DNA of 42,319 bases from Enterococcus phage Phi_Eg_SY1, in the sequence record OQ623132.1; one strand, 5' to 3'. This document shows, in pieces, positions 6,401-42,319 of the stretch. Position 1 is the first letter of the stretch. Each line of letters starts with the position of its first letter. The position numbers were made by a program, and so were the translations under genes. The notes beneath the pieces were generated by a model, which saw nothing but the letters and a program-made list of their open reading frames with translations, did not search any database and was not told where the DNA came from.

Positions 6401-6577
6401 ATGATGATTGAGGGACGTTTTGTCAGCAGAGAGTGGCACAAGGCGGCTGAATGGAACTGGAAACAAAGTGGTATAGTCCACATGAAACCTGTTAAGGAGG
6501 CTACTGTAATCATTCGTACAAAAGATATTGTAACGTTTAGTTCTGAACCATATGAATTTGTGGAGTCAGTTAGATGA
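6401..6577 (+). CDS. hypothetical small protein (58 aa)
   Basis: fills coding gap; weak RBS. Confidence 0.25.
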   Translation: MMIEGRFVSREWHKAAEWNWKQSGIVHMKPVKEATVIIRTKDIVTFSSEPYEFVESVR

Positions 6578-6609
6578 TATAATTGATTTGTCAAATGAAG
6601 GAGGAAACA

Positions 6610-7015
6610 ATGAAAAAAAAAATTTGAATCAGGGGACAAATTAAGACTAAAGAAAGCACCTAACTTAATTCAGTATGATAACGTAACAGTAGGTAAGATT
6701 TACGAGACATATGAACTCACTGACGCTCCAGAATATGTGAAACCTGACTACATTACAATCTTTGATGACACTTGTAAGCGGCGTAACCTCAAAAAAGATT
6801 TATTTGAACCTCTACCTAGTTGTGAGAAAGGTAGTAACATACACAATATTTTCCGTGTTCATAATGTAGAACAAGCAAAAGCGTGTTTAGCTGAACTAGA
6901 ACGCTATGGGTTTAATAAATTTAGTCTTACTGAGGATTTATTTTTTGATGAAATTTCACTCATTAACGTATACTTTGACGGAACATACGGACTACTAAAA
7001 TATACAGCAAACTAA
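6610..7015 (+). pseudogene. gene interrupted or recoded at an A10 homopolymer (ATG 6610 + A10 6613-6622); downstream frame open 6614-7015
   Basis: strong RBS GAAGGAGGAAACA-ATG then AAAAAAAAAA-TTT-TGA; deleting one A (or slippage) joins to the 134-codon open frame that contains track ORF 6737..7015. Confidence 0.4.
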
Positions 7016-7089
7016 TGTGGAACTTTGCAACGAACAGTTTCACTGTGGTGCATTTACCAGTACAATCTATAATTAATTTACAGAGTAAC

Positions 7090-7251
7090 ATGTTTAAGTT
7101 TGGACCAGCTCAAATTGAGCAACCAGAGACACATATCACAATTGACGCTGAGAAGCTTCTTTAACTGGTTGATAATGAAAAAATGAACTATTTTGAATTA
7201 ACGAACTATCTAAATGCCTACATTGACGGACAGAAAGGAAAATTGAAATGA
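7090..7251 (+). pseudogene. small gene with in-frame TAA (7162-7164); C-terminal part paralogous to the C-terminus of 5539..5895
   Basis: MFKFGPAQIEQPETHITIDAEKLL*LVDNEKMNYFELTNYLNAYIDGQKGKLK*, compare VMIDAEELRDKIK...AQEIVAYLNGYIEGKK. Confidence 0.35.
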
Positions 7252-7433
7252 AAAAATATGTAGTTATTGGAAATACGTGCCCAGAGCATAATTTTGAAAT
7301 TGGCACCACAGTGGAATAAGTTGCTCATTATTTAGATGGGATATTCTGCGTGAAAGGTAAAGTAAAGTACGCTGGCAACGAGAGTGAAATGACGTTGAAC
7401 AAGACGTACACCCTAGAGATTTACAGGAGGTAA
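7248..7433 (+). pseudogene. small gene with in-frame TAA (7317-7319)
   Basis: ATGA coupling to upstream ORF; MKKYVVIGNTCPEHNFEIGTTVE*VAHYLDGIFCVKGKVKYAGNESEMTLNKTYTLEIYRR*; the frame ends just before the next gene. Confidence 0.35.
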
Positions 7434-7439
7434 CAAGCA

Positions 7440-8024
7440 ATGAGTAATATGTTTGAGGTAGGTCACAGAGTAGTATGTGTAGACACTAGCTGTGTAGAAC
7501 GTGTATTAGAAAAAGGCAAACGCTATACAATTATAGGAGTAGACGAAGTTTTCGTACAAGTTGAGGGTATAAGAGAATGGTTCTACTACGACCGTTTTGA
7601 ACGTGACTACGTTAACGAAGAAATTGAGTATAATTTGAAAGATAAATATGGTGCTACCTTGAGTGTAGTTAGATTGTATAAAGATAAAACACTGATTGAA
7701 ATTAGTGATTTGACGGATGATATCTTAAGCGTACACTTAACAGATTTGGATTTAATTTGTTTGTATGCTATGGTGGGAGGCTTAAACGGTCAGCAAGTTA
7801 TTGATAGTTTAAAAGAGGAACAACTTAATACTACCTATAGTGACAAGGTTAAACTACTTCTACAAAAATTACAACATTCTGCTAGTAAAGGTCCTATGTG
7901 GGACCTGACAGACGTACCATACTTAAAACTTAGATTAGAACTAGTTAAACGCGGTTTGTTGGGTGGAGATGTCAAAAAAAAACTAAAGACTCACATTAAA
8001 GAGTTAGAGGGAGAAAGTAAATGA
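7440..8024 (+). CDS. hypothetical protein (194 aa)
   Basis: RBS CAGGAGG. Confidence 0.6.
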   Translation: MSNMFEVGHRVVCVDTSCVERVLEKGKRYTIIGVDEVFVQVEGIREWFYYDRFERDYVNEEIEYNLKDKYGATLSVVRLYKDKTLIEISDLTDDILSVHLTDLDLICLYAMVGGLNGQQVIDSLKEEQLNTTYSDKVKLLLQKLQHSASKGPMWDLTDVPYLKLRLELVKRGLLGGDVKKKLKTHIKELEGESK

Positions 8025-8103
8025 TTACCTACCTAGTACCACTAGTAGTTGCTATGTCACTATTGTTTTGTAAATGGTTGTTTCAACCAAATAAGGGAGG
8101 AAA

Positions 8104-8331
8104 ATGAAAATGAACACACTTGAATTATTTAATGAGTCATTAGAAATGGTAGCTGAGGAATTTACTAAAATTTCAAATGGAGATACTTCAACAACACCTG
8201 AGATTGTAGCGTTACTTATGTTAAATACAAGCGCCATAGGTGCTAAATTAGTAGAAGAAGGGTTTTCAGACGCAGAAGTAAGTAAGATGATTGATGATAA
8301 ATTGGACCCAATTGTAGGAGGTACCGAATGA
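8104..8331 (+). CDS. hypothetical protein
   Basis: RBS AAGGGAGGAAA-ATG. Confidence 0.5.
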   Translation: MKMNTLELFNESLEMVAEEFTKISNGDTSTTPEIVALLMLNTSAIGAKLVEEGFSDAEVSKMIDDKLDPIVGGTE

Positions 8332-8684
8332 TGACAAAAAGCGAACTTAACGAACAGTTAGCTACTAACGTTGACAAACTAAACACACTGGCGGATAAAG
8401 TGGCTGACTTCATTATTAAAAATGGTGTAAGTACCCATACATTAATGTTTAATTCACGAATTATTTTTCTAAGTAACACCCTAGACGCGTACATTGAAGA
8501 TGATACGCAAGTAGGAGAAGGATTTATTCACTCCGTTTTAGCAAGTGATATTGAGTATTTAAAGTATTATTTAGATGATGTTTACCCAGAGTTATTTGAT
8601 ACTAAGCGCCCTACAGATGAACTAAAAGAGTTTGATACAATTGTAGGGGATGTATATAATTTATTCTACTATGCTATAAACTAA
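8328..8684 (+). CDS. hypothetical protein
   Basis: RBS GGAGG; ATGA overlap. Confidence 0.55.
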   Translation: MMTKSELNEQLATNVDKLNTLADKVADFIIKNGVSTHTLMFNSRIIFLSNTLDAYIEDDTQVGEGFIHSVLASDIEYLKYYLDDVYPELFDTKRPTDELKEFDTIVGDVYNLFYYAIN

Positions 8685-8696
8685 CACACAAAATAA

Positions 8697-8733
8697 AAAC
8701 ACCTAATGGGGAGGAATCCACTAGGTGTTTTTA
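8697..8733 (+). terminator. strong intrinsic terminator (13-bp stem AAACACCTA(A/G)TGG, loop GGAGGAAT, then TTTTTAT)
   Basis: inverted repeat plus T-tract read directly. Confidence 0.65.
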
Positions 8734-8813
8734 TAGGGTTAGGGAGAAAAAGATGATAAGTTGCCTACATTTATTATACCATAAAAGATAATAAAAAGGT
8801 ATGTAAAAAGTCC

Positions 8814-8842
8814 TTGCAAGTATAGGCAAACTATGGTATTAT
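8814..8842 (+). promoter_or_regulatory. sigma70-like promoter TTGCAA-N17-TATTAT
   Basis: read directly; precedes small ORF 8875. Confidence 0.4.
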
Positions 8843-8874
8843 TAGAGTACAATTAGAAAAGGAAGTGTAAAATT

Positions 8875-9045
8875 ATGGGAACAATTATTTTAGGTGTGGT
8901 TCTAGCGGTTTCATTAATGATGAATGTACGGTACAGCGTTGAACGTAAGTATTCTATTGCAATTATTAACGCCCAGGACGCCTCTATAAAAGAGTTAACA
9001 AACAAACTCAACGCTAAAGGGGTAAACAACTATGAAACACGTTAA
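8875..9045 (+). CDS. small membrane-anchored protein (56 aa, N-terminal TM)
   Basis: RBS AAGGAAG; MGTIILGVVLAVSLMM hydrophobic N-terminus. Confidence 0.4.
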   Translation: MGTIILGVVLAVSLMMNVRYSVERKYSIAIINAQDASIKELTNKLNAKGVNNYETR

Positions 9046-9544
9046 CCCAAAACATGAGCAATTTGAACCAATGGAGGAACCCTTTGACATATACAGTGTG
9101 TCAAATATGGGTTACATTATTAATGTAGATGATGAAATGGTTGTACCTATGCAAAAGGATGATTCAAACGGTCGCTTATTTGTTCGTTTGACCTGTAAGA
9201 ACTCACAAGGTAACCAAGTTGTACGTGTGATGTATGTTGCTAAACTAGTAGCTGATATGTTTGTACCAAATGTAGGCAATGATAAGTTTGTAGGCTTCAA
9301 AGATGGCAACACACTAAATAACTGCGCGAGTAACCTCTTTCACGCTTCAAATATGTTTGACGCAAGCGAAACAATGAATAGACCACTACGTAAAGAACTA
9401 GAGGAAGAACGCCACAGCTTACTATGTAAGATTGGTCACGCTCTAGATAATGAACAGGAACTAGAGGCGCAACGATTAGGTAAACTATTGTGGAACCTAG
9501 AGAATGACAATTCAGAAGAACAAACAGAGTATGATTGGGCGTGA
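9032..9544 (+). CDS. HNH homing endonuclease (NUMOD4 / HNH_3-like)
   Basis: YSVSNMGYIINVDD (NUMOD4-like) and VGFKDGNTLNNCASNLFHAS (HNH_3-like). Confidence 0.6.
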   Translation: MKHVNPKHEQFEPMEEPFDIYSVSNMGYIINVDDEMVVPMQKDDSNGRLFVRLTCKNSQGNQVVRVMYVAKLVADMFVPNVGNDKFVGFKDGNTLNNCASNLFHASNMFDASETMNRPLRKELEEERHSLLCKIGHALDNEQELEAQRLGKLLWNLENDNSEEQTEYDWA

Positions 9545-9548
9545 GTAG

Positions 9549-10307
9549 ATGATTGAATATAAGATTATAAGCAGTGGGTCAGTAGGTAACGCGGTTAAGT
9601 TGACGTTTCAGAACGGTATTAAGATGATGATTGACATAGGTCTATCATATAAAGCACTTAAAAACGAGTTACAAGATTGTCACTTGCTTTTTGTAAGTCA
9701 CATACACTCTGACCATTTGAATGTAGGTTGTTACAACCAAATTAGAAAAAACCAACCTTGGGTTAAGGTCATAGCCTGCGAGGAAGTAAATGAGTTAGTA
9801 ATATCAAAAGGTAAAAAACCTGTAGATATTATAGTAACGCATGGGAGTGAAATTGAGGTAAGTGGTGTCAAATGTACATTTTTAGACGCACCACATGAGG
9901 TGCAAAATTTAGGTATTATAGGTGAGTCAGACGGACAAACATTCTTATATTCTACTGACTTAATGACTACGTTTGCGTTCAGTGAATACCTAGACAACGT
10001 AGGTAAAACAATTGACTTACTGCTCCTTGAGGCAAACTATGACCCCGCTGTAATTGGATACAGTGAGTATATGAAAATCCATAGTGGGTATGATACGTAT
10101 AACAATGGTTCATATAGACACCTTTCAACAGTAGCAAATAAACAATTCGCAGAAAAATATTTGTCCGCTGGTGGTGTGAGCATTCCCTTACACAAAAGCG
10201 GTAGTTATTACTCATATAGAGACCTTAAGGACCACCAAGACTTAGATGATTCACATGACAACGCATTTATAGAATACTGCAAAGAAAGGGGTTATGATTA
10301 TGTATAA
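9549..10307 (+). CDS. metallo-beta-lactamase-fold hydrolase
   Basis: HxHxDH motif SHIHSDH. Confidence 0.6.
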   Translation: MIEYKIISSGSVGNAVKLTFQNGIKMMIDIGLSYKALKNELQDCHLLFVSHIHSDHLNVGCYNQIRKNQPWVKVIACEEVNELVISKGKKPVDIIVTHGSEIEVSGVKCTFLDAPHEVQNLGIIGESDGQTFLYSTDLMTTFAFSEYLDNVGKTIDLLLLEANYDPAVIGYSEYMKIHSGYDTYNNGSYRHLSTVANKQFAEKYLSAGGVSIPLHKSGSYYSYRDLKDHQDLDDSHDNAFIEYCKERGYDYV

Positions 10308-10542
10308 GTACGTAGTAAGGTATAAAGATTTTGGTGGTACAGGTACAGATGTATATTTTGCACGGTTCTCAACACTGTTCCCCGTTTATGATGAGGACAG
10401 AGGACGAAATAGATTTTCGTCTATAGTTTCTGAGAAACCTATTGTAAAAATGGACATAACAACCGCTAAAATGGTTAGAGACTTAACAGGTGGAAACGGT
10501 GAGGTGGTGGCAGTCAATGAGGATGGTGTAATTATTGGATAA
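10294..10542 (+). CDS. hypothetical protein
   Basis: overlapping start, compact operon. Confidence 0.45.
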   Translation: MIMYKYVVRYKDFGGTGTDVYFARFSTLFPVYDEDRGRNRFSSIVSEKPIVKMDITTAKMVRDLTGGNGEVVAVNEDGVIIG

Positions 10543-11311
10543 TGAATTAATGATTAGTGTGGGTAATGTACCGTCAATTGAGTTTGTTCAATATGATAAA
10601 TTGTTAGATGACATTACTAAACTAGCGAATGAAATGAAACAGGTTAAGGTAACAGAGGAGAATATAAACGAGTATAAGAAACTTCTAGCACGTGCGCGGA
10701 AAGAATTCACTAGCATAGATAATGAGCGTAAAAACGTCAAGAAACAGATTATGAAACCATATGACGAACTGGACGCTAAAATAAAGCACCTTAGAGGTAT
10801 TCTAAAAGAGGGTGAGGACGCGCTTGATGTTCAAATAAAAGCCTACAGAGACGCACAGAGAGCTTCAAAGTGGGATTATATACTAGTTACCTTTGAACGA
10901 TTTAGAGAAGGCTATGAGGCTCCTACGTGGATCTCATTTGATATGTTTAAAAACATGTACCCCAACTTAGCAAATGCTAGTTCTACTCAGTCAAAAATAA
11001 ATGATGCACTAACGTCTTTTTTTGAACAATTTGACAATGACTACAAACAATTAAAGCAGTGGTACCCCGTGCGTAATCAACGTACATCTATTTTAGCAGT
11101 ATACGCAAATAATGGTTTAAACTTGATGGACGCTGTGCAACAGTATGAGAAAGTGCGTGCTGAGGGAATGCGTCTACAGGAGTTAGAAGTTGAGAAAAAG
11201 GTGCAAATAACAGTAGATGGTAAACAGGAACCCACACAAACAGAGTATGTAATGGTTAAAATTGCCAAGGATGACCTAACGAATTTAGACATTGATTATG
11301 AGTTAGTATAA
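10535..11311 (+). CDS. DUF1351-like phage protein (recombination-module associated)
   Basis: N-terminal coiled region resembling DUF1351 from memory; followed by SSB-like gene. Confidence 0.4.
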   Translation: MDNELMISVGNVPSIEFVQYDKLLDDITKLANEMKQVKVTEENINEYKKLLARARKEFTSIDNERKNVKKQIMKPYDELDAKIKHLRGILKEGEDALDVQIKAYRDAQRASKWDYILVTFERFREGYEAPTWISFDMFKNMYPNLANASSTQSKINDALTSFFEQFDNDYKQLKQWYPVRNQRTSILAVYANNGLNLMDAVQQYEKVRAEGMRLQELEVEKKVQITVDGKQEPTQTEYVMVKIAKDDLTNLDIDYELV

Positions 11312-11370
11312 CACTGATTTAATAAACAATGCTATAATATTAATAGACTTACAACGAAAGGGAGATAAAT

Positions 11371-12051
11371 ATGACAAAAGAATCACAAACTTTGATTGTA
11401 GTTGCAGTAGAAAATGAGGACAAAGCGTTAAATATTAGTGTGTGTCCAGAGGATTATTCTAAGTTGTATACATTAACGTTGTACAAGGAGGACTATGACA
11501 AGACAACTAAGAAATGGAGTGTTACTGATGAGGTAACCAAACGCTATGAGGACGAGCTTGAGAAATTAGGTGGAGTTCCTAAAGTGGGGGATAAGATTGA
11601 CGTATACCCTTCTGACAACGGTAAAGCATACCTACAGCCTAGTACATTTATTAAAGCTGAAAAACCAACTGGCAAAATGGTAGGTAAATTGCTACTTGGT
11701 TGCGAAGTAGAGTCAATTAGAGACAATGTAAAAGGACGTACCGTTACTGTAAGTTATAAAGGTAAGTTCTATGAATTTTCATTTAATACCAGTGTATGGA
11801 TTCCTACCATTGGAAAATACGTGCCTAATGACGCTAAAGCAAACAAAGCACGTGAACGGTTTGAGGACATTTTTGAAGAGTCACCTATCACATGGGACAA
11901 CGCACTTGTTCAAAATGACAAAGGTGAGTTTCTAGCTAAAGGTGTCAAGATTAATTGCATGGTTCGTAAGAATGAACTGGACCAAACAGGCAACTCAGGT
12001 TACTTAGAACCTAGTAAGATTGAAGCAGATGAAGGAGAACTACCATTTTAA
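11371..12051 (+). CDS. putative atypical ssDNA-binding protein with SSB-like acidic C-terminal tip (DEGELPF)
   Basis: C-terminal ...EADEGELPF resembles SSB DDDIPF partner-binding tail; body is not a canonical SSB OB fold. Confidence 0.4.
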   Translation: MTKESQTLIVVAVENEDKALNISVCPEDYSKLYTLTLYKEDYDKTTKKWSVTDEVTKRYEDELEKLGGVPKVGDKIDVYPSDNGKAYLQPSTFIKAEKPTGKMVGKLLLGCEVESIRDNVKGRTVTVSYKGKFYEFSFNTSVWIPTIGKYVPNDAKANKARERFEDIFEESPITWDNALVQNDKGEFLAKGVKINCMVRKNELDQTGNSGYLEPSKIEADEGELPF

Positions 12052-12066
12052 AAAAAAAAAACTTTA

Positions 12067-12094
12067 AGAACCCTGTTGACAAGGGTTCTTTTTT
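12067..12094 (+). terminator. intrinsic terminator AGAACCCT-GTTGACA-AGGGTTCT + TTTTT (preceded by A11)
   Basis: perfect 8-bp stem, read directly. Confidence 0.65.
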
Positions 12095-12104
12095 ACTGTA
12101 TATT
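12076..12104 (+). promoter_or_regulatory. promoter TTGACA (in hairpin loop)-N17-TATATT
   Basis: read directly; overlaps terminator. Confidence 0.5.
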
Positions 12105-12123
12105 AGTCGTAAGAGGAGGAGAT

Positions 12124-12327
12124 ATGATGTTAAATATTTACATTAACCATTATAACGCTGGCAATGGTGTGAAAGAAGAACAATACATTGGTGTTGATTC
12201 GTGGGGTATTGATAAGGATACTAATTTATTAGTGATTAACCACAATAGCTTTACCACTGAATACGTGGCAATGGAACAGGTACTAGGTATTAAAGTAATT
12301 GACATGAACCCAAAGGGGGAAATATAA
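12124..12327 (+). CDS. hypothetical protein (67 aa)
   Basis: RBS AGAGGAGGAGAT-ATG; track start 12076 is the -35 TTG. Confidence 0.5.
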   Translation: MMLNIYINHYNAGNGVKEEQYIGVDSWGIDKDTNLLVINHNSFTTEYVAMEQVLGIKVIDMNPKGEI

Positions 12328-12485
12328 TGTTCAAGGTAACCTATATTAATTATAAAGATTCTTACGAAGAGTGTTTTATTTTTGCAAATGACATTTTTGA
12401 GGCGTGTGAAATTGCTGAGAACTTACAAGGTGTAGAACGTGTTCTAGAAGTTGAGAAATTAGTTCAAAAAAGTGTTGACAGATGA
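12327..12485 (+). CDS. hypothetical small protein (52 aa)
   Basis: RBS AAAGGGGGAAATATA-ATG. Confidence 0.4.
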   Translation: MFKVTYINYKDSYEECFIFANDIFEACEIAENLQGVERVLEVEKLVQKSVDR

Positions 12486-12506
12486 TTAATCACCTGGTAG
12501 TATAAT
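12475..12506 (+). promoter_or_regulatory. promoter TTGACA-N17-TAGTAT(AAT) with TG extension
   Basis: read directly. Confidence 0.5.
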
Positions 12507-12536
12507 AAATGTAAGATAACTAAGGAGGAAAACAAG

Positions 12537-12788
12537 ATGAAAAACATTATTGCAGACGGATACCCCTATAAAGACGTACAGGAAGTTACTATTACAGGAG
12601 GCAAGTATAATGACGTATATGACGTGTACAAAGATTCTTTTGCGTATGTACATTTAGAGACTAATACGATTTTTATCACACCTAAGCTTAGTAGCCCGCT
12701 GCTAACATGTGACGTTGATGGAGCACCTATGATTCCGTTATTTGCTAGTGACTTTGATTATGTAGTATCTAAGGAGGAAGAGAAATGA
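12537..12788 (+). CDS. hypothetical protein
   Basis: RBS TAAGGAGGAAAACAAG-ATG. Confidence 0.5.
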   Translation: MKNIIADGYPYKDVQEVTITGGKYNDVYDVYKDSFAYVHLETNTIFITPKLSSPLLTCDVDGAPMIPLFASDFDYVVSKEEEK

Positions 12789-13039
12789 TTACTGTAAGGG
12801 TTAACAATTGGAGAAAAGTAAAGGTAACACCAGTTATTGTAACAGGTACGCCTACTGACCCTGTGGGTTCAGAAAGCCTGTTGTTTGGTCGTAAGGGTTT
12901 TGTTTCAGAGGACTATGAGACGCTATGGATTGATTCAAAAGGGATTGACTTCTTATACTCAGACACAATTAATGGTAAGGAGTACGCTCCGTTTGACACT
13001 GGTGATTATACCTTTAAGGAGGATGTACCAAATGTGTAA
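12785..13039 (+). CDS. hypothetical protein
   Basis: ATGA overlap; RBS AAGGAGG. Confidence 0.5.
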   Translation: MITVRVNNWRKVKVTPVIVTGTPTDPVGSESLLFGRKGFVSEDYETLWIDSKGIDFLYSDTINGKEYAPFDTGDYTFKEDVPNV

Positions 13040-13382
13040 TAATGAGGATGAACTAACTAAGTTGCGAACTGAAAACGCATATCTACGTAAGAAGAACCTA
13101 GATTATGCAGTGTCTGTTGATGAACTACTGGATGAAATTGATGAATTAAGAGCATGGGCAAACGAGTTGATTGAAGATAATGAGGAATTAACTAACCACT
13201 GTGACGAACTCATTGAGGAAAATACAGAACTTAGTGAGCTAAATAATAACCTACGTGGTCAGGCTGATTTTTTAGATAAGCAAGTTAATGACTTTGAGAG
13301 TGAAGTTGATTTCCTACATGACCATATAAACGAGTTAGCCAATTTTATAAATAGATTAATGGAGGATGATGAAAATGAATAA
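13032..13382 (+). CDS. acidic coiled-coil protein (116 aa)
   Basis: RBS AAGGAGGA 8 nt before ATG 13032; heptad-rich, D/E-rich. Confidence 0.5.
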   Translation: MCNNEDELTKLRTENAYLRKKNLDYAVSVDELLDEIDELRAWANELIEDNEELTNHCDELIEENTELSELNNNLRGQADFLDKQVNDFESEVDFLHDHINELANFINRLMEDDENE

Positions 13383-13569
13383 ACCAAGTTTGGGACTATA
13401 TGTTTTAATTGCATTATTGTTTGGTGGTATTGGGCTACACCGTTTTTATGAAGGACGTGCGTTTTCAGGATTCATGTACCTGTTGTTCTTCTGGACAGGA
13501 GTACCAATTATTCTCGCAGTGTTTGATGTGATTCGCGCATTGACTACTCGCAGATATTTATATAACTAG
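13366..13569 (+). CDS. TM2-domain membrane protein
   Basis: GGIGLHRFYEGR motif plus 2 TM helices. Confidence 0.5.
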   Translation: MMKMNKPSLGLYVLIALLFGGIGLHRFYEGRAFSGFMYLLFFWTGVPIILAVFDVIRALTTRRYLYN

Positions 13570-13576
13570 GAGGGTA

Positions 13577-14002
13577 ATGATGAAAAGAGAATACACAACA
13601 GGTGACATTTTAACATATGTAGGTGAGCAAGACAGTCTCAAAGGTAAGGTGATTCAATTAGACAGTAAGTGCGGAGGCTTTTGGGGGACAGTATGTGATG
13701 AAGATGGTGTCTACAGTGAAGGTTATTTAGATGAGAGTTATATGTTCGTAGATAAGAATGTTGAGCTACCTACTAATACACAGGATAACGCGAATAGATA
13801 TTTAACTGAAAGTGGCAAACAACTATATGATGTTTTAGCAGATGATTTACTTACACCTGAACAGTATGAGGGTTTTATTTTAGGTAACATTTACAAGTAT
13901 GTAAAACGCTATAAAGATAAAAATGGCGTTGATGACTTGCAAAAAGCAAAGGACTACATTGACCTTTTAATAATTGACATGGAGGGAAATAAAGATGAAT
14001 GA
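13577..14002 (+). CDS. hypothetical protein with DUF3310-like C-terminus
   Basis: GNIYKYVKRYKDKNGVDDLQKAKDYIDLL resembles DUF3310 from memory. Confidence 0.4.
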   Translation: MMKREYTTGDILTYVGEQDSLKGKVIQLDSKCGGFWGTVCDEDGVYSEGYLDESYMFVDKNVELPTNTQDNANRYLTESGKQLYDVLADDLLTPEQYEGFILGNIYKYVKRYKDKNGVDDLQKAKDYIDLLIIDMEGNKDE

Positions 14003-14171
14003 TATGCTTATTTTAGTAATGGATACGAACACAGGTGAAACGGTAGCAACCTTAGATGGTGAAACTGAGACCCTAAACAAAGATGTGATGATTGAGTTAC
14101 TAGGTGAGGTAATAGAGTTCTTACGTAGAGAACCTAGTGTATTAGATGAGGAGGAAAATGAACATGAATGA
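13995..14171 (+). CDS. hypothetical small acidic protein
   Basis: RBS GGAGGG. Confidence 0.45.
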   Translation: MNDMLILVMDTNTGETVATLDGETETLNKDVMIELLGEVIEFLRREPSVLDEEENEHE

Positions 14172-14367
14172 TTATGGGTTACTAGTAGAAATTGAAAACA
14201 CAGACAAGCTTTTGGCTGATTTAGAAGATGACATGCGGGAGCAAGGTGTAGAAGAGGAAACACTCACATTATATGCTAACTATGCATTGCTACAGGTGGC
14301 ACAACTTCTAAAACTTGATTATGTGAGTATAGACGAGTTTATTGAAAAGACTAGAGAGAAATTATAG
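14164..14367 (+). CDS. hypothetical small acidic protein
   Basis: RBS GAGGAGG. Confidence 0.45.
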   Translation: MNDYGLLVEIENTDKLLADLEDDMREQGVEEETLTLYANYALLQVAQLLKLDYVSIDEFIEKTREKL

Positions 14368-14379
14368 GAGGAAAACAGT

Positions 14380-14664
14380 ATGAAACTTGTAACTACTAAA
14401 AAAACTATTAAACCTATGCAAGAAGAGTTGCGCAATTCAATTTGGGTACATGGTAATGGTAAATTTTTCTTACCAACTCACATTACTGGCAAATGGTTAC
14501 TTGTTGACATGAGTGATTGTGGTAATGGATACACTGGATTAAACAAAGGTTGGGATTCAGTATATGAAATGTATAATGTGTTAGGTGAACAATTTACTAA
14601 GTTAGTTCCACTTAAAACCTTAGTTTTACAGTCTGATGACATTCTTGATATTACACAAAATTAA
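14380..14664 (+). CDS. hypothetical protein
   Basis: RBS TAGGAGGAAAACAGT-ATG. Confidence 0.5.
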   Translation: MKLVTTKKTIKPMQEELRNSIWVHGNGKFFLPTHITGKWLLVDMSDCGNGYTGLNKGWDSVYEMYNVLGEQFTKLVPLKTLVLQSDDILDITQN

Positions 14665-14688
14665 CCCTTGCAGAAGCAGGGGTTTTCT
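14665..14688 (+). terminator. hairpin CCCTTGC-AGAA-GCAGGGG + TTTTCT
   Basis: read directly. Confidence 0.5.
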
Positions 14689-14696
14689 GCTATACT
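14668..14696 (+). promoter_or_regulatory. promoter TTGCAG-N17-TATACT overlapping the terminator
   Basis: read directly. Confidence 0.4.
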
Positions 14697-14717
14697 AGTT
14701 TTTAGGGAGGTAATTGA

Positions 14718-17042
14718 ATGAATACTATTTTTACACCAAGTACGCAACAAAAAGAAAATGCACGCACGTTCTTTGAACTATGGAAAACACTAGAAGGGAA
14801 TGCGCGTTCATACGACCCTATGACAGGGGGAATGAAAGAAGTTGTTGTCACAGAGAACATTGAGACACAATCTAAAAAAGGTAACCCTATGAGACGTGTG
14901 AAACTGCGTGAGATTGAAACAGGTAGAGAAGCGGTATCTTATCTAATGAACTGGAAACCTGATTTTACACGTTGGGAGGACATTGAACCACTTACAACAG
15001 TACGTTTAACTATTGACTTAAAAGATGGTTTCTACAATTTAGGTAAGCCAGACATTACAGGCTCAGTAGAGTCTATCCCACAACGTCCAAATAAACCAAA
15101 CGGACCACAATACTTGATTATTTATGACATTGAGGTCTTTGAACAGGATTTTGTTATCTGTGCTAGAGACCTGTTCAGTGGGAAGCGTTGGGAAATTGCT
15201 AATGACCTAGATAAAGCACGCGAATGGTATCTAGAAGTTCGTGATAGTCTCTTTACAGGTTACAACTCTGCTAGTTATGATAATAATGTGCTACGCGGTT
15301 ATTTACAAGGTAAGGACGCCTTTCAATTGTCTCAAGCTGTTATCAAGTCAGATGACAGAGGACTCATTTACAAGCTCTTTAATACCAAGAAAACACCTAT
15401 TATAGGCTGTGACCTATACCATGAGCATAAAGGTTTTTCACTGAAAGAGCATGAAGGGTTTATGGGGTTAGAAGTCAAAGAGACGGATGTTGATTTTGAG
15501 CAAGGTGGTAAACTAACAGATGATGAATTACAAAAAGAAATTGACTATTGTTGGAAAGACGTTGAAGCAACGGAATTGCGTTTCTATGGTTGCGTAGATG
15601 GTTTACTAGCTAAGGCGTTCATTTGCGCTATGTTCAACCTTGATAAACAGGCATTTAACCAGACAAACGCTAACCTAGTAGCTCAGTTAATGGGTGCGAA
15701 CCGTCCTAAGAGTGTGCGTGATGATTTAATTGAACCCTTCACATTACCTGAGAACCTTAACTTGACGATTCCAGAGATTAGAGAAATGTTTCTAGAACAT
15801 GAGTTTGAACTAAATAAAAAAGGTAAACCTATTGCTAAGGGTACGTACACTGACCCTAAAACAGGGTATGTTATGAAGTTTGGAGCAGGTGGCGTACATG
15901 GTGCAGTTGAACAACTTATCCATATTGGACGCTTCCTAATGCGTGACTATGGTAGTTTGTACCCTAACACCTACGTAAACTTTGACGTATTATCTCGTAA
16001 CGTACCTAGTAAAAATAAGCATCTAGTGAAAGAACTCCTAGACAAACGTTTAGAGGCGAAATACACAAATGAAACAGAGATAACAATGAATGGTGTAACA
16101 TTACCAATGTACGTTTTAGTAAATGGTGTAAAACTACCACTAAATACATTGTTTGGTGCCACAGGTGCTGAGTTCAATGGTTTATATGACCCAAGATACC
16201 AATTTTTAACGTGCGTTATAGGTCAGTTGATTATGAGTGACTTCTATGAGGGGATTAGGGACCACGTAACTATGTTACAGTCAAACACAGACTGTCATGC
16301 GTACATTCCTCATGATGAAGAAGCTGAACGTATTACAGACGTATTCTGTGATGATATTTCTAAACGTGTAGGTATTGTCTTAGATAAAGATGAGTTTATT
16401 GCCTTGTACCAGAAGGATGTAAATAATTACATTGGAATTGACTCTAAAGGTAAAGTAAAGGTTAAAGGTGCTATTACATTAACGAATGGTTTGAAATACT
16501 CTAAAGCTGTAGTTTCTAATGCGTTTATTAACTACGTTGTGAGTGGTGTTGATTACAAAGAATATATTGCAGATTGTAGTGACCTGCGTCAGTTCCAAAT
16601 TATTACTAAAACAGGGTGGACATTTGATAGAACAGTTTATATTGACGCAGATGGAAATGAACATGACGCGCAGAAAGTAAACCGTGTGTTCGCTGTTACT
16701 AGTGATGAAAAAGCTGTTAAACTCTTCAAAGTCAAAACTGGACAACTAGAAGCAGTTGAAAATGAAGAGGGTGAATTTGAAAAAGAAGATGTTTCTTATG
16801 TAAAAGGTGACGACTCTTATGTAAGTGGACTAAACAACCCACCTGAGTATTACACCATTTCTAATGAGAGGATTGGTGAAGGCGTGCAACTAGATGAGAT
16901 TGACTTAAGTTACTATGAGTTAGAAGTTGAGCGCACATTAGTATTATGGTTTGGAGATAATTGGAAAGAAAGATTGAAGGACGCACACAATAAATACAAA
17001 GAACAATATGGAACGTTACCAGAGGTAAAACAGTACGTTTAA
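14718..17042 (+). CDS. family B DNA polymerase with N-terminal 3'-5' proofreading exonuclease
   Basis: ExoI YDIEV, ExoII YNSASYDNNVLRGYL, ExoIII YCWKD; pol motif A DYGSLYPN, motif B KLPLNTLFG, motif C-like SNTDC. Confidence 0.7.
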   Translation: MNTIFTPSTQQKENARTFFELWKTLEGNARSYDPMTGGMKEVVVTENIETQSKKGNPMRRVKLREIETGREAVSYLMNWKPDFTRWEDIEPLTTVRLTIDLKDGFYNLGKPDITGSVESIPQRPNKPNGPQYLIIYDIEVFEQDFVICARDLFSGKRWEIANDLDKAREWYLEVRDSLFTGYNSASYDNNVLRGYLQGKDAFQLSQAVIKSDDRGLIYKLFNTKKTPIIGCDLYHEHKGFSLKEHEGFMGLEVKETDVDFEQGGKLTDDELQKEIDYCWKDVEATELRFYGCVDGLLAKAFICAMFNLDKQAFNQTNANLVAQLMGANRPKSVRDDLIEPFTLPENLNLTIPEIREMFLEHEFELNKKGKPIAKGTYTDPKTGYVMKFGAGGVHGAVEQLIHIGRFLMRDYGSLYPNTYVNFDVLSRNVPSKNKHLVKELLDKRLEAKYTNETEITMNGVTLPMYVLVNGVKLPLNTLFGATGAEFNGLYDPRYQFLTCVIGQLIMSDFYEGIRDHVTMLQSNTDCHAYIPHDEEAERITDVFCDDISKRVGIVLDKDEFIALYQKDVNNYIGIDSKGKVKVKGAITLTNGLKYSKAVVSNAFINYVVSGVDYKEYIADCSDLRQFQIITKTGWTFDRTVYIDADGNEHDAQKVNRVFAVTSDEKAVKLFKVKTGQLEAVENEEGEFEKEDVSYVKGDDSYVSGLNNPPEYYTISNERIGEGVQLDEIDLSYYELEVERTLVLWFGDNWKERLKDAHNKYKEQYGTLPEVKQYV

Positions 17043-17115
17043 TACTGTAAATTTTTACGCTATAGTCGTCAGAGGACGATTCTAAGCACATTTAAAAAAG
17101 GAGTATGTACGATTA

Positions 17116-17337
17116 ATGATTAAAGTTTATTCTAAGAACAACTGTATGCAGTGTAAAATGGTGAAACGATTTCTAAATGAACACGGTTTAGAATATAGTG
17201 AGATAAACATTGAAGAACAACCAGAGGCGCGTGATTATCTGATGAAGATGAACCTAAAAACGGTACCTGTCACAGAAGTAGATGGTGAAGTTATTATAGG
17301 TTTCAATATAACTGAATTAAGACAATTGATTAAATAA
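17116..17337 (+). CDS. nrdH: NrdH-like glutaredoxin
   Basis: 73 aa; CMQC redox motif at N-terminus; RBS AAGGAG. Confidence 0.55.
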   Translation: MIKVYSKNNCMQCKMVKRFLNEHGLEYSEINIEEQPEARDYLMKMNLKTVPVTEVDGEVIIGFNITELRQLIK

Positions 17338-34234: not shown

Positions 34235-35461
34235 TTATGCGCCTGCTCCACCGCTAGGGAATTCAGAGGCATTACCTACGATTACAGTAGATACATTGTC
34301 CTTAATTGCTCCTAGTTTAAACATCAAGCCAGCGTTTGTGTCTGTAGCTACTACGTCAAAACGGATTGCACCTGCTAACATTTCACCGTAGACGTTATGG
34401 TCTTGCCAACGTACAGTCATTTCAGTACGTTTGAACAATGTAATTGCTTGTTCTAAGTCACCAATGAACAGTAATTTGTCATCTGTTTCATTTTTAAAGA
34501 TAGCGTCAGGAAGTACTACTACTTCTTTACCAAACAATGTTTTACCACTTGCCATTGTCACGTTTGGTTGGATGATATAGCGTCCGTCTGCGTCTTTCAA
34601 TGTGTCTAATTGACCAAACGCGCTTTGTGATACATAAACGCGTTGTGCGTATGCAGGGTCAATTGTAACGTCAGAAGCCACTTTAAGTTGGTCTAATGAT
34701 GTTAATTCAGTTGGTGCGAATTTAGCTAACAACTCAGCCATAATTGCTTTGTTAGTTGTGTTCAATGCAATACGAGTGATATGTTTAGCAATCAACGCAA
34801 CCAACTCAGGGTCAGAGTCTTGAATTGCTTCGTTAGACATTGGGATGTATCCGCGGTAAGTTTCCACTTTCCAAGCTACGTCCTTGAATGTTGGTTCTGC
34901 CAATTTAGGGTTAGCTACTAACTCAGCTACTGTGTTCATTACAGCATTAGTTGTTTCCAAAATTGGGTATGAACCTGAGCCAGTTGTTACTGTCACTACG
35001 TTAACATAGTTTTGTAGGTCAACAATTGTTTCTGGTAAAGTGATTGGTTTTGTAACGCGGTCTACTGGTACAATCGCTTCAATTCCCTCTAATTTAACAT
35101 CACGTAGTTCTGGTGCTTTTACTGCTCCGTGTGAGCGGACATACTGACCGAACGCACGTAACTCAGCGTCCTCAATATTTTCTGTAGGTTTGATTTTTTT
35201 AACGTTTTCCATGTCTCGTTGCTCTCCTTTTTCGTCATTTTCTAATTCGTCAAGTGATTCCTCTAGTTCTTTAGCACGTTCATCTTCCTTAGGTTCGTCC
35301 TTAGGTTCGTCCTTAGGTTCGTCCTTAGGTTCGTCCTTAGGTTCGTCCTTAGGTTCTTTGTTCAACTCACGTACTTCATTGATTAGTTTTTCAGCTTCAT
35401 CTAACTTACCTTGTGAGAGTAATTCACGTGCCTCAATAAGTTTATTCTCCATTGTTAACAC
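34235..35461 (-). CDS. HK97-family major capsid protein with N-terminal coiled-coil delta/scaffold domain
   Basis: 408 aa after prohead protease; (EPKD)5 repeat in delta domain. Confidence 0.8.
   Translation of the reverse strand: MLTMENKLIEARELLSQGKLDEAEKLINEVRELNKEPKDEPKDEPKDEPKDEPKDEPKEDERAKELEESLDELENDEKGEQRDMENVKKIKPTENIEDAELRAFGQYVRSHGAVKAPELRDVKLEGIEAIVPVDRVTKPITLPETIVDLQNYVNVVTVTTGSGSYPILETTNAVMNTVAELVANPKLAEPTFKDVAWKVETYRGYIPMSNEAIQDSDPELVALIAKHITRIALNTTNKAIMAELLAKFAPTELTSLDQLKVASDVTIDPAYAQRVYVSQSAFGQLDTLKDADGRYIIQPNVTMASGKTLFGKEVVVLPDAIFKNETDDKLLFIGDLEQAITLFKRTEMTVRWQDHNVYGEMLAGAIRFDVVATDTNAGLMFKLGAIKDNVSTVIVGNASEFPSGGAGA
35287..35358. repeat. 12-bp tandem repeat CCTTAGGTTCGT x ~6 encoding (EPKD)n within the capsid delta domain
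   Basis: read directly. Confidence 0.85.
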
Positions 35462-39243: not shown

Positions 39244-39702
39244 TTACAACATTGCTCCAAATGGGTCCTCTGGTTCCCGTTCCTTCACTTCTGGAATAAC
39301 CAACTTCATACGTGAATCAATAGATAGACCAAGTGAGCTTGCTAAGGACTTCAATTGTTTAGAGGTTTCGTTCATAACCTTAAACGCGCCTGACGGTTTA
39401 CCATTTTCGTCTAGGAAACCATATTCAGATACTTCCTGCGTTGCCTGAGAATAAATAGCATATGTATTGCAGTAAATAACCAATAAACCAGCGTCTAGTT
39501 TTGAAATTGGTAGTTGTCTCATCTGTGGTACTAGGTCCTCATAAATAAGCCACCCTTCTTTAGTGATTCCGTGGGGTACATCCTCTAGAGAAATTGGTTC
39601 GTAATTATATAATAACTCTTCCTCTTTTTCTCGCTCTATTCTCTGTTCTTTTGTTAAGTGACTATTTTCTTGCGCACTTACTAATTTTCTAGGTCTTGGC
39701 AT
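39244..39702 (-). CDS. terS: terminase small subunit (P27 family)
   Basis: 152 aa directly upstream of terL; RBS AAGGAGGAG. Confidence 0.7.
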   Translation of the reverse strand: MPRPRKLVSAQENSHLTKEQRIEREKEEELLYNYEPISLEDVPHGITKEGWLIYEDLVPQMRQLPISKLDAGLLVIYCNTYAIYSQATQEVSEYGFLDENGKPSGAFKVMNETSKQLKSLASSLGLSIDSRMKLVIPEVKEREPEDPFGAML

Positions 39703-39744: not shown

Positions 39745-39781
39745 TAAAATTACTCGTTTTAGGAATCGTAACTAATTTAAT

Positions 39782-39846
39782 AAAGGTATTTTGTACTTTT
39801 ATTAATAAAAGTATTTTTTACCTTTATTGTTTAGGTATATTTTACC
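39782..39846. repeat. three AT-rich direct repeats (A(A/G)GTAT(A)TTTTACC) at 24-25 bp period
   Basis: read directly; upstream of terS. Confidence 0.5.
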
Positions 39847-39974
39847 TAAATTAGATTTCATATTAGGATTTTTACACGAAGAGAAGAGAGCTTCGATTAT
39901 TTGACACTCAGAGGGTACGGGGGGTTAATTTTAGCGCGCCTAAAAAGTTTTTAATATAATTATACCCCCTCGCC

Positions 39975-40020: not shown

Positions 40021-40054
40021 AAAAAAGACCCCTACAGATTATTTTCTGTAAGGG
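40021..40054 (-). terminator. hairpin + TTTTTT on the minus strand overlapping the 3' end of the HNH gene
   Basis: CCCTTACAG-N-CTGTAGGGG with one bulge, then U6. Confidence 0.4.
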
Positions 40055-40428
40055 TGTGAAGGTGCGTATTTGTGACTGTGTTTGTTATGGCAAGAATAGC
40101 AAATACTTTCTAAATTATTCATTTCTAATCGTTTTTCCCATCCACCATTAGGGTCACGTAGCTCTATGATGTGGTGCACCATGTCTGCCTTAGTGGTAAT
40201 CCCTTTGCGCATGCACACTTCACAATATGGAGTCTCTAATAACTTTACTTTACGCGTTGCTCTCCATTCTGGTGTGTGATAGAACTTGCTATACTTCCCA
40301 TTGTCACTGTTATATCTGACTCTCTTGTTGTATTCACTCTTACCTTTCTTCATATGCTTGTCACAGTACATTGTACCAAGTGGAACCTTATTCCTACAGT
40401 AGGTTACCTCACACTTCTTTAATGGCAT
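40039..40428 (-). CDS. terminase-associated HNH endonuclease
   Basis: CxxC...HHI..L....NL..IC..CHN.H zinc-finger HNH motif; RBS GGAGGAG 8 nt before ATG 40428; adjacent to cos/terS. Confidence 0.75.
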   Translation of the reverse strand: MPLKKCEVTYCRNKVPLGTMYCDKHMKKGKSEYNKRVRYNSDNGKYSKFYHTPEWRATRKVKLLETPYCEVCMRKGITTKADMVHHIIELRDPNGGWEKRLEMNNLESICYSCHNKHSHKYAPSHPYRK

Positions 40429-40430
40429 TA

Positions 40431-41723
40431 TTAAATCTCCTCCATCCATTCGTCTATTAGTGTCTGTGTTACTGATTCACCATTGGTTACGTTGTTATAT
40501 ACTTTACGTTCTATATCATTGTCTGCAATCAGATAGTAATACAAAGGATTGTCTGTTGATGTGTGTCTTGTGATTCGTCCTTTCATCTGCTCAAAGGTAA
40601 TGCTACTGAGTGGCATTTCATAGAATACCATGGTGTGGGACTGTGCTAGGATATTGACCCCTGTACTCCCTGCCTTGAATTGTACAAGGATGATAGCATT
40701 ATCATATTGCTCCCATGCTTCTAAGTCCTTTACACTACCGTTGTATGATGATACAGGTCTACCACTCTTACTGATAACATCATAGAGTCTATTATATGAT
40801 TCCGTGTAGTTGTATCCAATTACTACACGTTCTCCTTTACATTCTTCTAGTATGTCCTTTAGCGTGTCTATTTTGCTGTTCTTAGCTACTTTATCAACAT
40901 AGGGTACATAACCATTAGAAGCAACTCTAAGCGCGTTAAACACCTTGCTAGGGTTGTCTAATTCAATTATATCCCCTGAGTCTGTCTGGTAGGTCCTATG
41001 TTTAGCTAACGCCTTTACCATTGATGGTGATTTAACATATTTAACAATATCTGAGGGGACTAACTTATTATCACGCTTAATACTCACACTATGTGTAGAG
41101 ACAATCTCTTTTAGTTCATGTAGGTTCTTGTATCCTGTGATTACATTGAAACTACGCCCTCCCATATATTGAAGCTCTTCTATGCAGTAACGTTCTCTGA
41201 AAGCTTTCCATGTTCCTTTGTATAAACCAGCTATCGTTAACTGAGAGAACCACTGTTCCATTGCTCCATTTGAGATGGGTGTTCCGCTCATTAAATAAGT
41301 CTGACCTGCTTTCTTACTTGCTTTCATCCAGAATTTCGTTACGTTGGCTGTCCTATTTGCCAGTAAGTGAGATTCGTCAAAGACAATCATGGTTTCTTTA
41401 TCAATAAATTTCAATAATTGTGGGGTTCTCCATGATGATTGGAAACTGATTGCGACGTGTTGCGTTCCTGTAGCCTCTAGGAGGCTCTCTCTGCGCTTTG
41501 GTGAACCTTCTATGGTAATTATACCTAAACCTTGTTGAGACCCCTCAGAAGCCCAATCAGACACCTTAGACGCTAGGCATACAATTACCAGCTTCTTAAG
41601 ATCACTGTGTTTAAATCCTTCTAGAGCCATTAGCGTCTTTCCTGCTCCCACTTGAGATGTGTTGATGTTGTGGGTTCTTACCTTCTCAATAACCGTCTGT
41701 TGTTCTGGTGTTGGTATTAGCAT
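40431..41723 (-). CDS. SNF2/DEXH-family DNA helicase
   Basis: Walker A GAGKT, DESH box, LMSGTP, C-terminal helicase motif VI QMKGRITR. Confidence 0.7.
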   Translation of the reverse strand: MLIPTPEQQTVIEKVRTHNINTSQVGAGKTLMALEGFKHSDLKKLVIVCLASKVSDWASEGSQQGLGIITIEGSPKRRESLLEATGTQHVAISFQSSWRTPQLLKFIDKETMIVFDESHLLANRTANVTKFWMKASKKAGQTYLMSGTPISNGAMEQWFSQLTIAGLYKGTWKAFRERYCIEELQYMGGRSFNVITGYKNLHELKEIVSTHSVSIKRDNKLVPSDIVKYVKSPSMVKALAKHRTYQTDSGDIIELDNPSKVFNALRVASNGYVPYVDKVAKNSKIDTLKDILEECKGERVVIGYNYTESYNRLYDVISKSGRPVSSYNGSVKDLEAWEQYDNAIILVQFKAGSTGVNILAQSHTMVFYEMPLSSITFEQMKGRITRHTSTDNPLYYYLIADNDIERKVYNNVTNGESVTQTLIDEWMEEI

Positions 41724-41744
41724 TTTATCTCCTCCTTAACACTG

Positions 41745-41753
41745 ATTATAGCA
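41745..41753 (-). promoter_or_regulatory. extended -10 promoter TGCTATAAT (minus strand), start of the late transcription unit
   Basis: + strand ATTATAGCA about 15 nt upstream of RBS AAGGAGGAG. Confidence 0.45.
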
Positions 41754-41880
41754 TAAATACCAGTGTAATAGCCTTTCTAGGTAAAATAACGAGAAATAGT
41801 AGCATATTTTGCGGTTATTAGTGAGGTAATGCCACCTGTAAACCAAGGCTGGTAAGTGATTGAGCGATTCTACAAAAAGA

Positions 41881-41901
41881 GTGGTCAAAAAAATTGACCA
41901 C
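41881..41901. promoter_or_regulatory. perfect palindrome GTGGTCAA-N5-TTGACCAC (candidate operator)
   Basis: read directly. Confidence 0.5.
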
Positions 41902-42009
41902 TTGTAGGTCATGTGGCTGTAGGGATGAGGTCTGTTATGATTCAATGGACACTTTTTTAAGCCAAAATAAGCTAATTATTCTAATTGATATTGCGTTTGG
42001 GAAAAATAC

Positions 42010-42080
42010 CCATTTTTTATATATTACTCTTTATTTATTATTTACTTTATATAATATATATAAATAGAATATAAAAAGAG
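42010..42080. repeat. extreme AT-rich block with short direct repeats (candidate DNA unwinding element or bend)
   Basis: TTTTTTATATATTACTCTTTATTTATTATTTACTTTATATAATATATATAAATAG. Confidence 0.4.
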
Positions 42081-42125
42081 TATGTTATCCATTGGGGCTC
42101 TAAGGCTATAACCGGGCAATCGTTT

Positions 42126-42200
42126 TTTGACCAATAACAAAATAAATTGACCACATTGGTCTCAATCCCTTGGGTCACAACTACTCTAGCTGGTCATAAA
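42126..42200. repeat. cluster of TTGACCA / TGGTCA half-site repeats (iteron-like)
   Basis: TTGACCAA, TTGACCACA, TGGTCTCA, TGGGTCACA, TGGTCATA within 75 bp. Confidence 0.4.
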
Positions 42201-42319
42201 TAACTGCTATTTTTTGTCCAGTACGTGTCCACCCCTCTTAAAATAACACCACCTAACTATTGCCTGATTTCATTTTTTATGGTAAAGTGGTCTTACAAAC
42301 ATTTTGAGGAGGAGATATG

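Follow-up and report, generated by a model that had tools for sequence, protein, structure and literature searches.

Introduction

What is the function of the 593 bp of non-coding DNA that separate the two divergently transcribed gene blocks of Enterococcus phage Phi_Eg_SY1? The stretch analysed here (sequence record OQ623132.1, 42 319 nucleotides) is referred to as the window, and positions 41724-42316, between the divergent gene blocks, as the gap. The window is a complete, circularly permuted tailed-phage genome of ~42.3 kb, whose end-to-start junction is crossed by two contigs from public read-run assemblies (L040 and L041); the gap lies between a leftward block that begins with an SNF2-type helicase gene and a rightward block that carries the replication functions. 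An original prediction, made from the letters of the sequence, had interpreted the gap as an operator and/or a replication origin. The operator half of that proposal finds little support, whereas the origin half is supported by the layout and its recurrence in relatives, with short repeats flanking the least stable duplex of the genome, by a superfamily 3 (SF3) helicase encoded next to the gap, and by promoters that sit at its outer edges. We put at roughly 0.6 the probability that the gap is the replication origin of the phage, with the iteron-plus-unwinding-element design of the Staphylococcus aureus pathogenicity islands (SaPIs) and phage P4.

Two clusters of a short repeat lie in the gap

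The left cluster (41880-41960) opens with a perfect 9+5+9 palindrome, AGTGGTCAA-AAAAA-TTGACCACT at 41880-41902, read directly in the sequence; its arms are two inverted copies of the repeat and contain two of the four genome copies of GTGGTCAA. It is followed by a third site, AGGTCA (41906-41911, plus strand, likewise read directly), and by a site of TGGACA type, ATGGACACTTTTTTAA (41945-41960, plus strand), whose 14-nt core GGACACTTTTTTAA is identical to that of the left site GTGGACACTTTTTTAA in the related contig L056 (orthology was judged by eye, MAFFT having left these stretches unaligned). The right cluster (42127-42196) comprises TTGACCAA at 42127-42134 and TTGACCAC at 42147-42154, which point one way, and TGGTC (42157-42161), GGGTCA (42172-42177) and TGGTCA (42191-42196), which point the other. 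Beyond it two TGTCCA sites lie on the minus strand within 42215-42232, at 42215-42220 and at 42226-42231, the second within GTGTCCAC (42225-42232). Both orientations of the repeat are thus present on each side of the central AT-rich block: TGGTCA (41882), TGACCA (41895), GGTCA (41907) and TGGACA (41946) to its left, and TGACCA (42128, 42148), TGGTC (42157), GGTCA (42173), TGGTCA (42191) and TGTCCA (42215, 42226) to its right. The sole genome copy of GTGGACAC is also in the gap.

Most of this had been anticipated. The original prediction described a perfect palindrome with 8-bp arms at 41881-41901, which is right and extends by one base pair on either side, and the repeat positions that it gave agree to within 1 nt. 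Its count of about ten half-sites comes down to seven exact copies of GGTCA/TGACC in 41724-42316 (41883, 41895, 41907, 42128, 42148, 42173 and 42192), the positions 41929, 42158 and 42289 having the 4-base core GGTC alone. It had also proposed enrichment over the genome background as a check; GGTCA is indeed enriched, with seven copies in the gap against 1.28 expected from the rest of the genome (P = 4e-4).

The excess over the rest of the genome rises with word length. TGGTCA is found five times against 0.44 expected (P = 1e-4), the gap holds 4 of the 13 genome copies of TTGACCA (P = 1e-5) and three of the four copies of GTGGTCAA (P = 5e-7), and none of the other nine copies of TTGACCA falls in another intergenic gap. 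When all 600-bp intervals of the genome were compared with 300 dinucleotide shuffles, the gap proved to be the densest interval for GGTCA (P = 0.013), TGGTCA (P = 0.007), TTGACCA (P = 0.003) and GTGGTCAA (0/300 shuffles); the same scan was not significant for the bare 4-mer GGTC (P = 0.13). Within-gap shuffles give p = 0.005 for the four copies of TGGTCAA, and in an unbiased k-mer ranking of the gap both GTGGTCAA and TGGTCAA are with the highest-ranked non-AT words. On these figures it is hardly credible that a short word has clustered by chance, and with no function, in AT-rich non-coding DNA. It is true that the word was picked after looking, and that the 4-mer core and a looser repeat statistic are not enriched, but the k-mer ranking and the genome-wide scan (P 0.013 to <0.003) speak otherwise, and so do the recurrence of the layout with other words in independent lineages and the joint change of seven homologous sites that are described below. 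An exact search of IMG/VR for GTGGTCAA-N5-TTGACCAC returned 33 loci, all unrelated and mostly coding, which is about the number expected by chance.

Two small open reading frames (ORFs) lie in the gap, at 41736-41945 on the minus strand and 41894-42067 on the plus strand; the region aligns poorly across lineages.

The genome's least stable duplex lies between the repeats

Between the clusters at 41880-41960 and 42127-42232 lies an AT-rich block, the proposed DNA unwinding element, at 42013-42082 (70 bp, 91.4% A+T). No other stretch of the genome is as rich in A+T, and the original prediction had located the block correctly, along with its extreme composition; the interval then given, 42010-42080, has 88.7% A+T instead of the >90% that was claimed for it, and 42017-42076 reaches 93.3%. 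Measured over 80 bp, its duplex is also less stable than any other in the genome (-75.7 kcal/mol against a mean of -101.4 with a standard deviation of 5.1, ~5 standard deviations below). An inverted pair, TACTCTTT (42025-42032) and AAAGAGTA (42075-42082), brackets the block; the 8-mer has three copies in the genome, and the pair could be the site of a second protein or plain dyad symmetry of the AT-rich block. A third AAAGAGT, at 41876-41882, abuts the palindrome.

Related phages keep the layout and change the word

Homologs of the SNF2 protein and the DUF5906 helicase were found only in read-run assemblies; searches of viral, metagenome and genome collections with the SNF2 protein and with an alignment of the helicase returned nothing, or fragments of 23-31% identity only. 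Contigs from public read-run assemblies, found by exact-protein look-up of the homologs, yielded the same gap from six further lineages, with L040/L041 as a seventh source, some of the gaps being partial and ended by contig ends. L040/L041 are nearly identical to the window and have the complete gap, with TGGTCA as in the window. Complete gaps are also present in L035/L036/L055 (SNF2 protein 76% identical to that of the window), where the word is TGTACA/GGTACA, in L056 (DUF5906 helicase 76%), where it is TGGACA/TGTCCA, in L037/L038 (SNF2 66%), where it is TTGCAA(A), and in L039 (SNF2 51%), where it is possibly TTGAAC (weak). L053 and L054 (DUF5906 helicase 63% in both) contain the right part only, with no clear word and with TTGACA, respectively; L043 (SNF2 66%) and L044 (SNF2 64%) contain the left part only, with one TGTACA copy and with TTGACA, respectively. 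L043 and L044 are kept apart from L053 and L054 for want of linkage and may be the left parts of those two lineages. All four contigs end inside the same gap, at different points, and their ends probably represent assembly breakage at AT-rich, repeat-bearing DNA and no physical genome end. In the Enterococcus phages Aramis and AL3 the gene order is different, and no comparable AT-rich block with repeats was seen beside the helicase gene.

The layout of the window (repeats, an AT-rich block of 87-97% A+T, a repeat array and a rightward promoter) is shared by L055, L056 and L037, and the AT-richest block, 87-97% A+T, is found at the same relative place in these three and in L053. The inverted pair with an A-run spacer recurs as well: GTGGTCAA-A5-TTGACCAC in the window, TGTACCA-A6-TGGTACA in L055 and GGACAC-A6-GTGTCC in L056. 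When the words were counted across all gaps, each gap was rich in its own word and had from none to at most two copies of the words of the others, with the exception of the window, which has three copies of TGGACA. The lineage-specific words stand above within-gap shuffles in L037 (TTGCAAA six times, p < 0.001) and L055 (GTACAA seven times, p = 0.003).

Comparison of L055 with L056, whose gaps align with 72% identity, reveals how the word changes. Seven of the ten GTAC cores of L055 are GGAC or GTCC in L056, that is, the same base-pair change, on a strand that depends on the orientation of the site (rough binomial P ~8e-7). At three of these switched positions the window has GACC/GGTC, and three positions of its right cluster (42127-42196) align with repeat sites of both L055 and L056. 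L055 and L035 differ from each other at two GTACs, both of them among the three that lack a counterpart in L056; between the window and L040, all three differences are outside the 6-bp cores. Because many sites were rewritten together, the concerted change would mean that one factor reads all of the sites and that its specificity has changed. It points to a co-evolving phage-encoded binding protein and not to host DnaA.

The same comparison bears on the proposal that the repeats are sites for a recruited host protein (DnaA, a GntR-type regulator or a nucleoid protein). This is highly improbable, even though TTGACCACA differs from a DnaA box at two positions, a resemblance to which the original prediction had drawn attention. 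TGGTCA-N7-TGACCA may also resemble the GT-N-AC operators of GntR-type regulators. None of the 54 genome matches to TTATNCACA with at most one mismatch is in the gap, and 54 is itself below the 72 expected genome-wide. The word moreover differs among lineages whose proteins are 76-92% identical, with seven sites switching together; since it changes between close relatives, a fixed host factor is unlikely, unless the hosts differ.

TGGACA/TGTCCA, the word of L056, is itself enriched in the gap of the window (three copies, at 41946, 42215 and 42226, against 0.40 expected; P = 8e-3). The window may read TGGWCA or may keep ancestral sites, and its gap, with both TGGTCA and TGGACA, could represent a transitional state. 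Tentatively, the lineages may represent successive natural switches of iteron specificity under an unchanged layout, in which the word is TG-NN-CA and NN is GT in the window, GA in L056 and TA in L055, with shorter forms in L037 and L044.

Conserved promoters mark the outer edges of the gap

The leftward promoter is of the extended -10 type (TGcTATAAT, 41745-41753, minus strand) and lies ~20 nt upstream of the ribosome-binding site of the SNF2 helicase gene; the leftward transcription start is taken from the promoter sequence. A TGnTAnAnT element is at the same place in all seven lineages compared. The rightward promoter, TTGCCT-17-TAAAGT with a TG extension (42260-42292, plus strand; -35 at 42260-42265, -10 at 42283-42288), has a TGTGnTAnAnT element that is kept in all of the relatives compared. 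Eleven of the ~12 repeat sites are 60-150 bp away from the two conserved promoters. The single repeat that touches a promoter is a partial one, GTGGTC (42287-42292), which overlaps the 3' end of the rightward promoter. Because the conserved promoters sit at the outer edges, the central ~480 bp of the gap would have no obvious coding or promoter role. The repeats were also considered as -35 boxes and rejected, there being no -10 element 16-18 nt downstream of them.

The repeats could in principle be operators or upstream sites through which a phage regulator controls one or both of the divergent promoters, for instance in autoregulation or in the timing of early and late genes, with the AT-rich block acting as a bent or UP-like spacer. 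The setting, a perfect palindrome typical of dimeric regulators, and the overlap of GTGGTC with the end of the rightward -10 element and the start region agree with such a role, and the concerted change of word would fit any co-evolving phage DNA-binding protein. We nevertheless regard it as unlikely. The strong sites are 60-150 bp from the promoters and off their -35 and -10 elements, in contrast to a lambda-like repressor-operator switch, in which operators cover these elements beside a regulator gene, and the overlapping site is not seen in L055 or L056; no helix-turn-helix protein, repressor or other regulator was recognized among the early proteins scanned, although these may include unrecognized small regulators. 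Repeats that bracket the least stable AT-rich block, in the relatives as in the window, are left unexplained by this account.

A different kind of origin is known from the same type of location. In the lactococcal phages of the genus Ceduovirus (c2 type), the origin occupies the stretch from which early and late modules diverge (PMC7150918), and by analogy an internal non-coding transcript would prime replication in Phi_Eg_SY1, the palindrome being its terminator, with no phage initiator on the repeats. On the minus strand the palindrome can indeed form a hairpin of -17 kcal/mol followed by CUUUUUG, and there are weak promoter-like matches within the AT-rich block. These matches are, however, at chance level (4 against 2.7 +/- 1.8 expected), the palindrome is specific to the lineage of the window, and a terminator explains neither the copies of the word beyond the AT-rich block nor its concerted change. 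The phage also has its own initiator-type helicase, and Rfam and tRNA scans of the gap returned no Rfam match and no tRNA. An origin of the c2 type is thus quite improbable here.

The neighbouring helicase as candidate reader of the repeats

If the gap is an origin with iterons, a phage protein should read them, and the likeliest candidate is encoded just to the right of the gap. The gene at 622-2367 (plus strand) encodes a P4/D5-type SF3 helicase (Pfam DUF5906), assigned by Pfam, by TIGR01613 and by a profile match to PriRep5. TIGR01613 ('phage/plasmid primase, P4 family') matches all eight members of the helicase family, with a score below its curated cut-off (41.5 vs 108.7 bits), and D5_N matches four of the eight. 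The best match of a profile of the close family is PriRep5 of SaPI5 (PDB 7OLA/7OM0; E = 3e-7, over the ATPase); the identity of PDB 7OLA as PriRep5 is confirmed in PMC9371898. With the profile widened by distant relatives from an exhaustive search, positions 120-543 match residues 385-792 of PriRep5 with E = 8e-53. In hhalign, the close family aligns with the distant relatives with 99.9% probability up to residue ~475, and alignment of the C-terminal part of the helicase covers only its first ~80 residues. The family is rare (66 proteins with E <= 1e-3, four of them with E <= 1e-10, among 1.84 billion cluster representatives), and its first ~140 and last ~110 residues have no counterpart outside the close family. 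A further homolog search with the family alignment added no new proteins.

A reader of the repeats would be expected to diverge with the word. In the two lineages with the most diverged repeat words, L037 (32% identity) and L039 (20%), the helicase is the fastest-diverging of the shared core proteins, in comparison with the Prim-Pol primase (45 and 34%), the SNF2 protein (66 and 51%) and TerL (83 and 66%). The helicases of L056 (P0014) and L055 (P0015), in which the seven sites are switched, are 92.4% identical with 44 differences, 19 of them located in two patches, residues 11-28 (10 differences) and residues 513-535 (9 differences). The latter patch is a hint, suggestive only, of a DNA-reading region. 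Together, the divergence in L037 and L039 and the clustered differences between P0014 and P0015 fit the helicase as the reader. TerS was also considered for this role and is unlikely: it is 80% identical in L037 despite an entirely different repeat word, and its gene is 2 kb away.

A proposed origin and the points against it

We propose the following scheme. The 6-8 bp repeats would be iterons with the core TGGTCA, extended to GTGGTCAA, and probably also TGGACA, arranged in clusters at 41880-41960 and 42127-42232 around the ~70-bp, ~91% A+T unwinding element at 42013-42082. A phage-encoded initiator, most likely the SF3 helicase (622-2367), would bind the repeats and open the AT-rich block. 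The helicase would then act as its own loader in the role of replicative helicase, and the Prim-Pol primase (3524-4504) and the DNA polymerase (14718-17042), both encoded in the same operon, would take over from it. The divergent promoters, one at either edge of the gap, would be elements apart. That the repeats are bound, that the AT-rich block melts, that the gap is active as an origin and which protein reads the repeats are what we infer from the comparisons above.

Several observations weigh against this scheme or parts of it. As to the DNA, the looser within-gap statistic (8-mers with one mismatch) is not above shuffles, the spacing of the repeats (9-24 bp) is not strictly helical, and the left cluster is ~100 bp away from the AT-rich block and does not abut it. 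Among the relatives, L039 and L053 show the layout weakly, and the gaps of L043, L044 and L054 are partial. The cumulative GC skew does agree with an origin here, with its minimum at the gap and its maximum near 17 kb, where the gene blocks converge, but the pattern is fully confounded with the direction of transcription. The gap is upstream of the helicase gene, whereas the SaPI origin is immediately downstream of rep. As to the helicase, residues ~476-581, where the winged helix would be expected, have no credible sequence match in Pfam or the PDB, and AlphaFold2 models, made with alignments of 5-6 sequences, were unusable (predicted local distance difference test score 35 for the whole protein and 34 for the C-terminal 187 residues). 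The helicases of the window and L055 are 73% identical with no obvious hypervariable domain, and the Prim-Pol primases of the two are more diverged (56%); because of this, the Prim-Pol primase or an unrecognized small protein could be the reader of the repeats, and unrecognized small early proteins do exist.

Genome setting and other features

The rightward block comprises the genes in 1-17337, which cover the replication functions, and the leftward block those in 17362-41723, namely the SNF2-type helicase (40431-41723, minus strand; Pfam and homology searches), then an HNH gene, TerS, TerL, portal and other structural genes. The original prediction had placed the gap at the head of the operon for helicase, primase and polymerase. 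These three are indeed transcribed rightward from it, as the SF3 helicase, a Prim-Pol primase with PriCT_1 (3524-4504, plus strand; domain searches) and the DNA polymerase (14718-17042, plus strand), but the first rightward gene encodes an HNH/NUMOD4 (I-HmuI-like) homing endonuclease (1-534, plus strand; Pfam), which separates the control region from the helicase gene. This arrangement is otherwise seen only in L040/L041. The HNH gene has no counterpart at the same spot in L035/L055, L056, L053, L054, L037 and L039, where the DUF5906 gene follows the gap directly, and by this comparison of gene orders it is an insertion between the gap and the helicase gene. Related HNH genes are placed elsewhere in the relatives (L037 2327-2773, L053 9999-10520). 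A near-consensus promoter, TTGACA (562-567)-17-TATATT (585-590), lies ahead of the helicase gene.

The window ends with ATG (42317-42319) and begins with ATG (1-3), and L040/L041 give the true sequence as ATGATG; judged by these contigs, the HNH start codon is where the record was cut open, and the genome is continuous through the junction. No integrase or repressor was found among the genes scanned. A search of deposited phage DNA (50 697 records) returned no match to the gap or to 25 kb of the genome. Among described groups, the genus Efquatrovirus of Enterococcus phages comes closest, with protein identities of 53% for TerL, ~41% for the SNF2 protein and ~28% for the helicase.

Three further features are recorded here. 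A ~340-bp non-coding stretch, 2367-2708, follows the helicase gene and looks like the remnant of a deleted gene; within it, 2597-2644 matches 15 of the last 16 residues of a 146-residue ORF of L056. The stretch that ranks second in the genome both for A+T content and for instability, ~39774-39860, lies between the HNH gene of the leftward block (40039-40449) and TerS (39244-39702), and is a candidate cos/packaging region because HNH, TerS and TerL genes are arranged in this order and HK97-like ends have been reported for Efquatrovirus. Close to its N-terminus, a 408-residue head-region protein (34235-35461, minus strand) has a series of KDEP repeats (EPKDEPKDEPKDEPKDEPKED).

Discussion

Iterons, an AT-rich block and a self-loading helicase are a known design, met here in a new phage lineage, and the general understanding of how phages initiate replication is unchanged by it. 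What the analysis would contribute is a likely origin for a previously undescribed lineage of ~42-kb lytic phages, whose nearest genus is Efquatrovirus at 40-53% protein identity, and thereby an extension of the SaPI-style design to another group of tailed phages. If correct, it would also describe a rare and very divergent branch of the SF3 helicase family. The feature of wider interest is that the iterons of close relatives have switched by small steps and in concert. Should the helicase be the reader, these switches would amount to a near-minimal map of how a self-loading SF3 initiator-helicase recognizes its origin and is re-targeted, and the closely related origin/helicase pairs with differing words would make specificity-swap experiments easy. 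In practice the gain is modest: a candidate origin of ~400 bp that could be used in vectors or in phage resistance by origin decoys.

Among known systems, phage P4 replicates from ori and crr with its alpha primase-helicase, one protein being both origin binder and SF3 helicase. The helicase family of Phi_Eg_SY1 resembles it in its matches to TIGR01613 (8/8) and D5_N (4/8), a single protein would fill both roles here too, and the repeats form two separate clusters in both. In P4 these clusters are kilobases apart and not arranged around a single AT-rich block, and in contrast to P4, primase and helicase are separate genes in Phi_Eg_SY1.

The Ceduovirus origins, located between the divergent early and late modules, are of unrelated sequence types and rely on a non-coding early transcript and no phage protein (PMC7150918). 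Phi_Eg_SY1 shares with them the non-coding gap between divergent modules and the occurrence of several origin sequence types within one phage group; it differs in having no convincing internal promoter, and in possessing an iteron array and an initiator-type helicase of its own.

To the nearest described group belongs the Enterococcus phage Abitsa (Efquatrovirus), for which an origin with seven 10-bp repeats about an AT-rich region, served by a self-loading helicase like PriRep5, has been predicted in silico (PMC13517437). The likeness extends to two oppositely transcribed genome halves and the same predicted kind of origin (PMC13517437). In Efquatrovirus, however, the SNF2 helicase is within the replication block, and there is no DNA similarity to the window.

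The SaPIs provide another close parallel. Their Rep proteins are initiators and self-loading helicases in one, with a C-terminal winged helix that reads iterons of 5-6 bp flanking an AT-rich region, and their origins have at least two iterons per side, in opposite directions (Qiao et al. 2022, PMC9371898, citing Ubeda et al. 2007). Phi_Eg_SY1 departs from this pattern in that its repeats lie in the divergent promoter gap of a lytic tailed phage and not in an island, an HNH gene stands between the gap and the helicase gene, the left cluster is set ~100 bp from the AT-rich block, and a winged helix was not detected in the helicase sequence. It agrees with the SaPIs in its short putative iterons of 5-8 bp, which stand in both orientations to the left and right of a central AT-rich region, in a candidate initiator gene that adjoins the proposed origin and is paired with a gene for a Prim-Pol-type primase, in a helicase homologous to PriRep5 (7OLA), and in an iteron word that differs by lineage.

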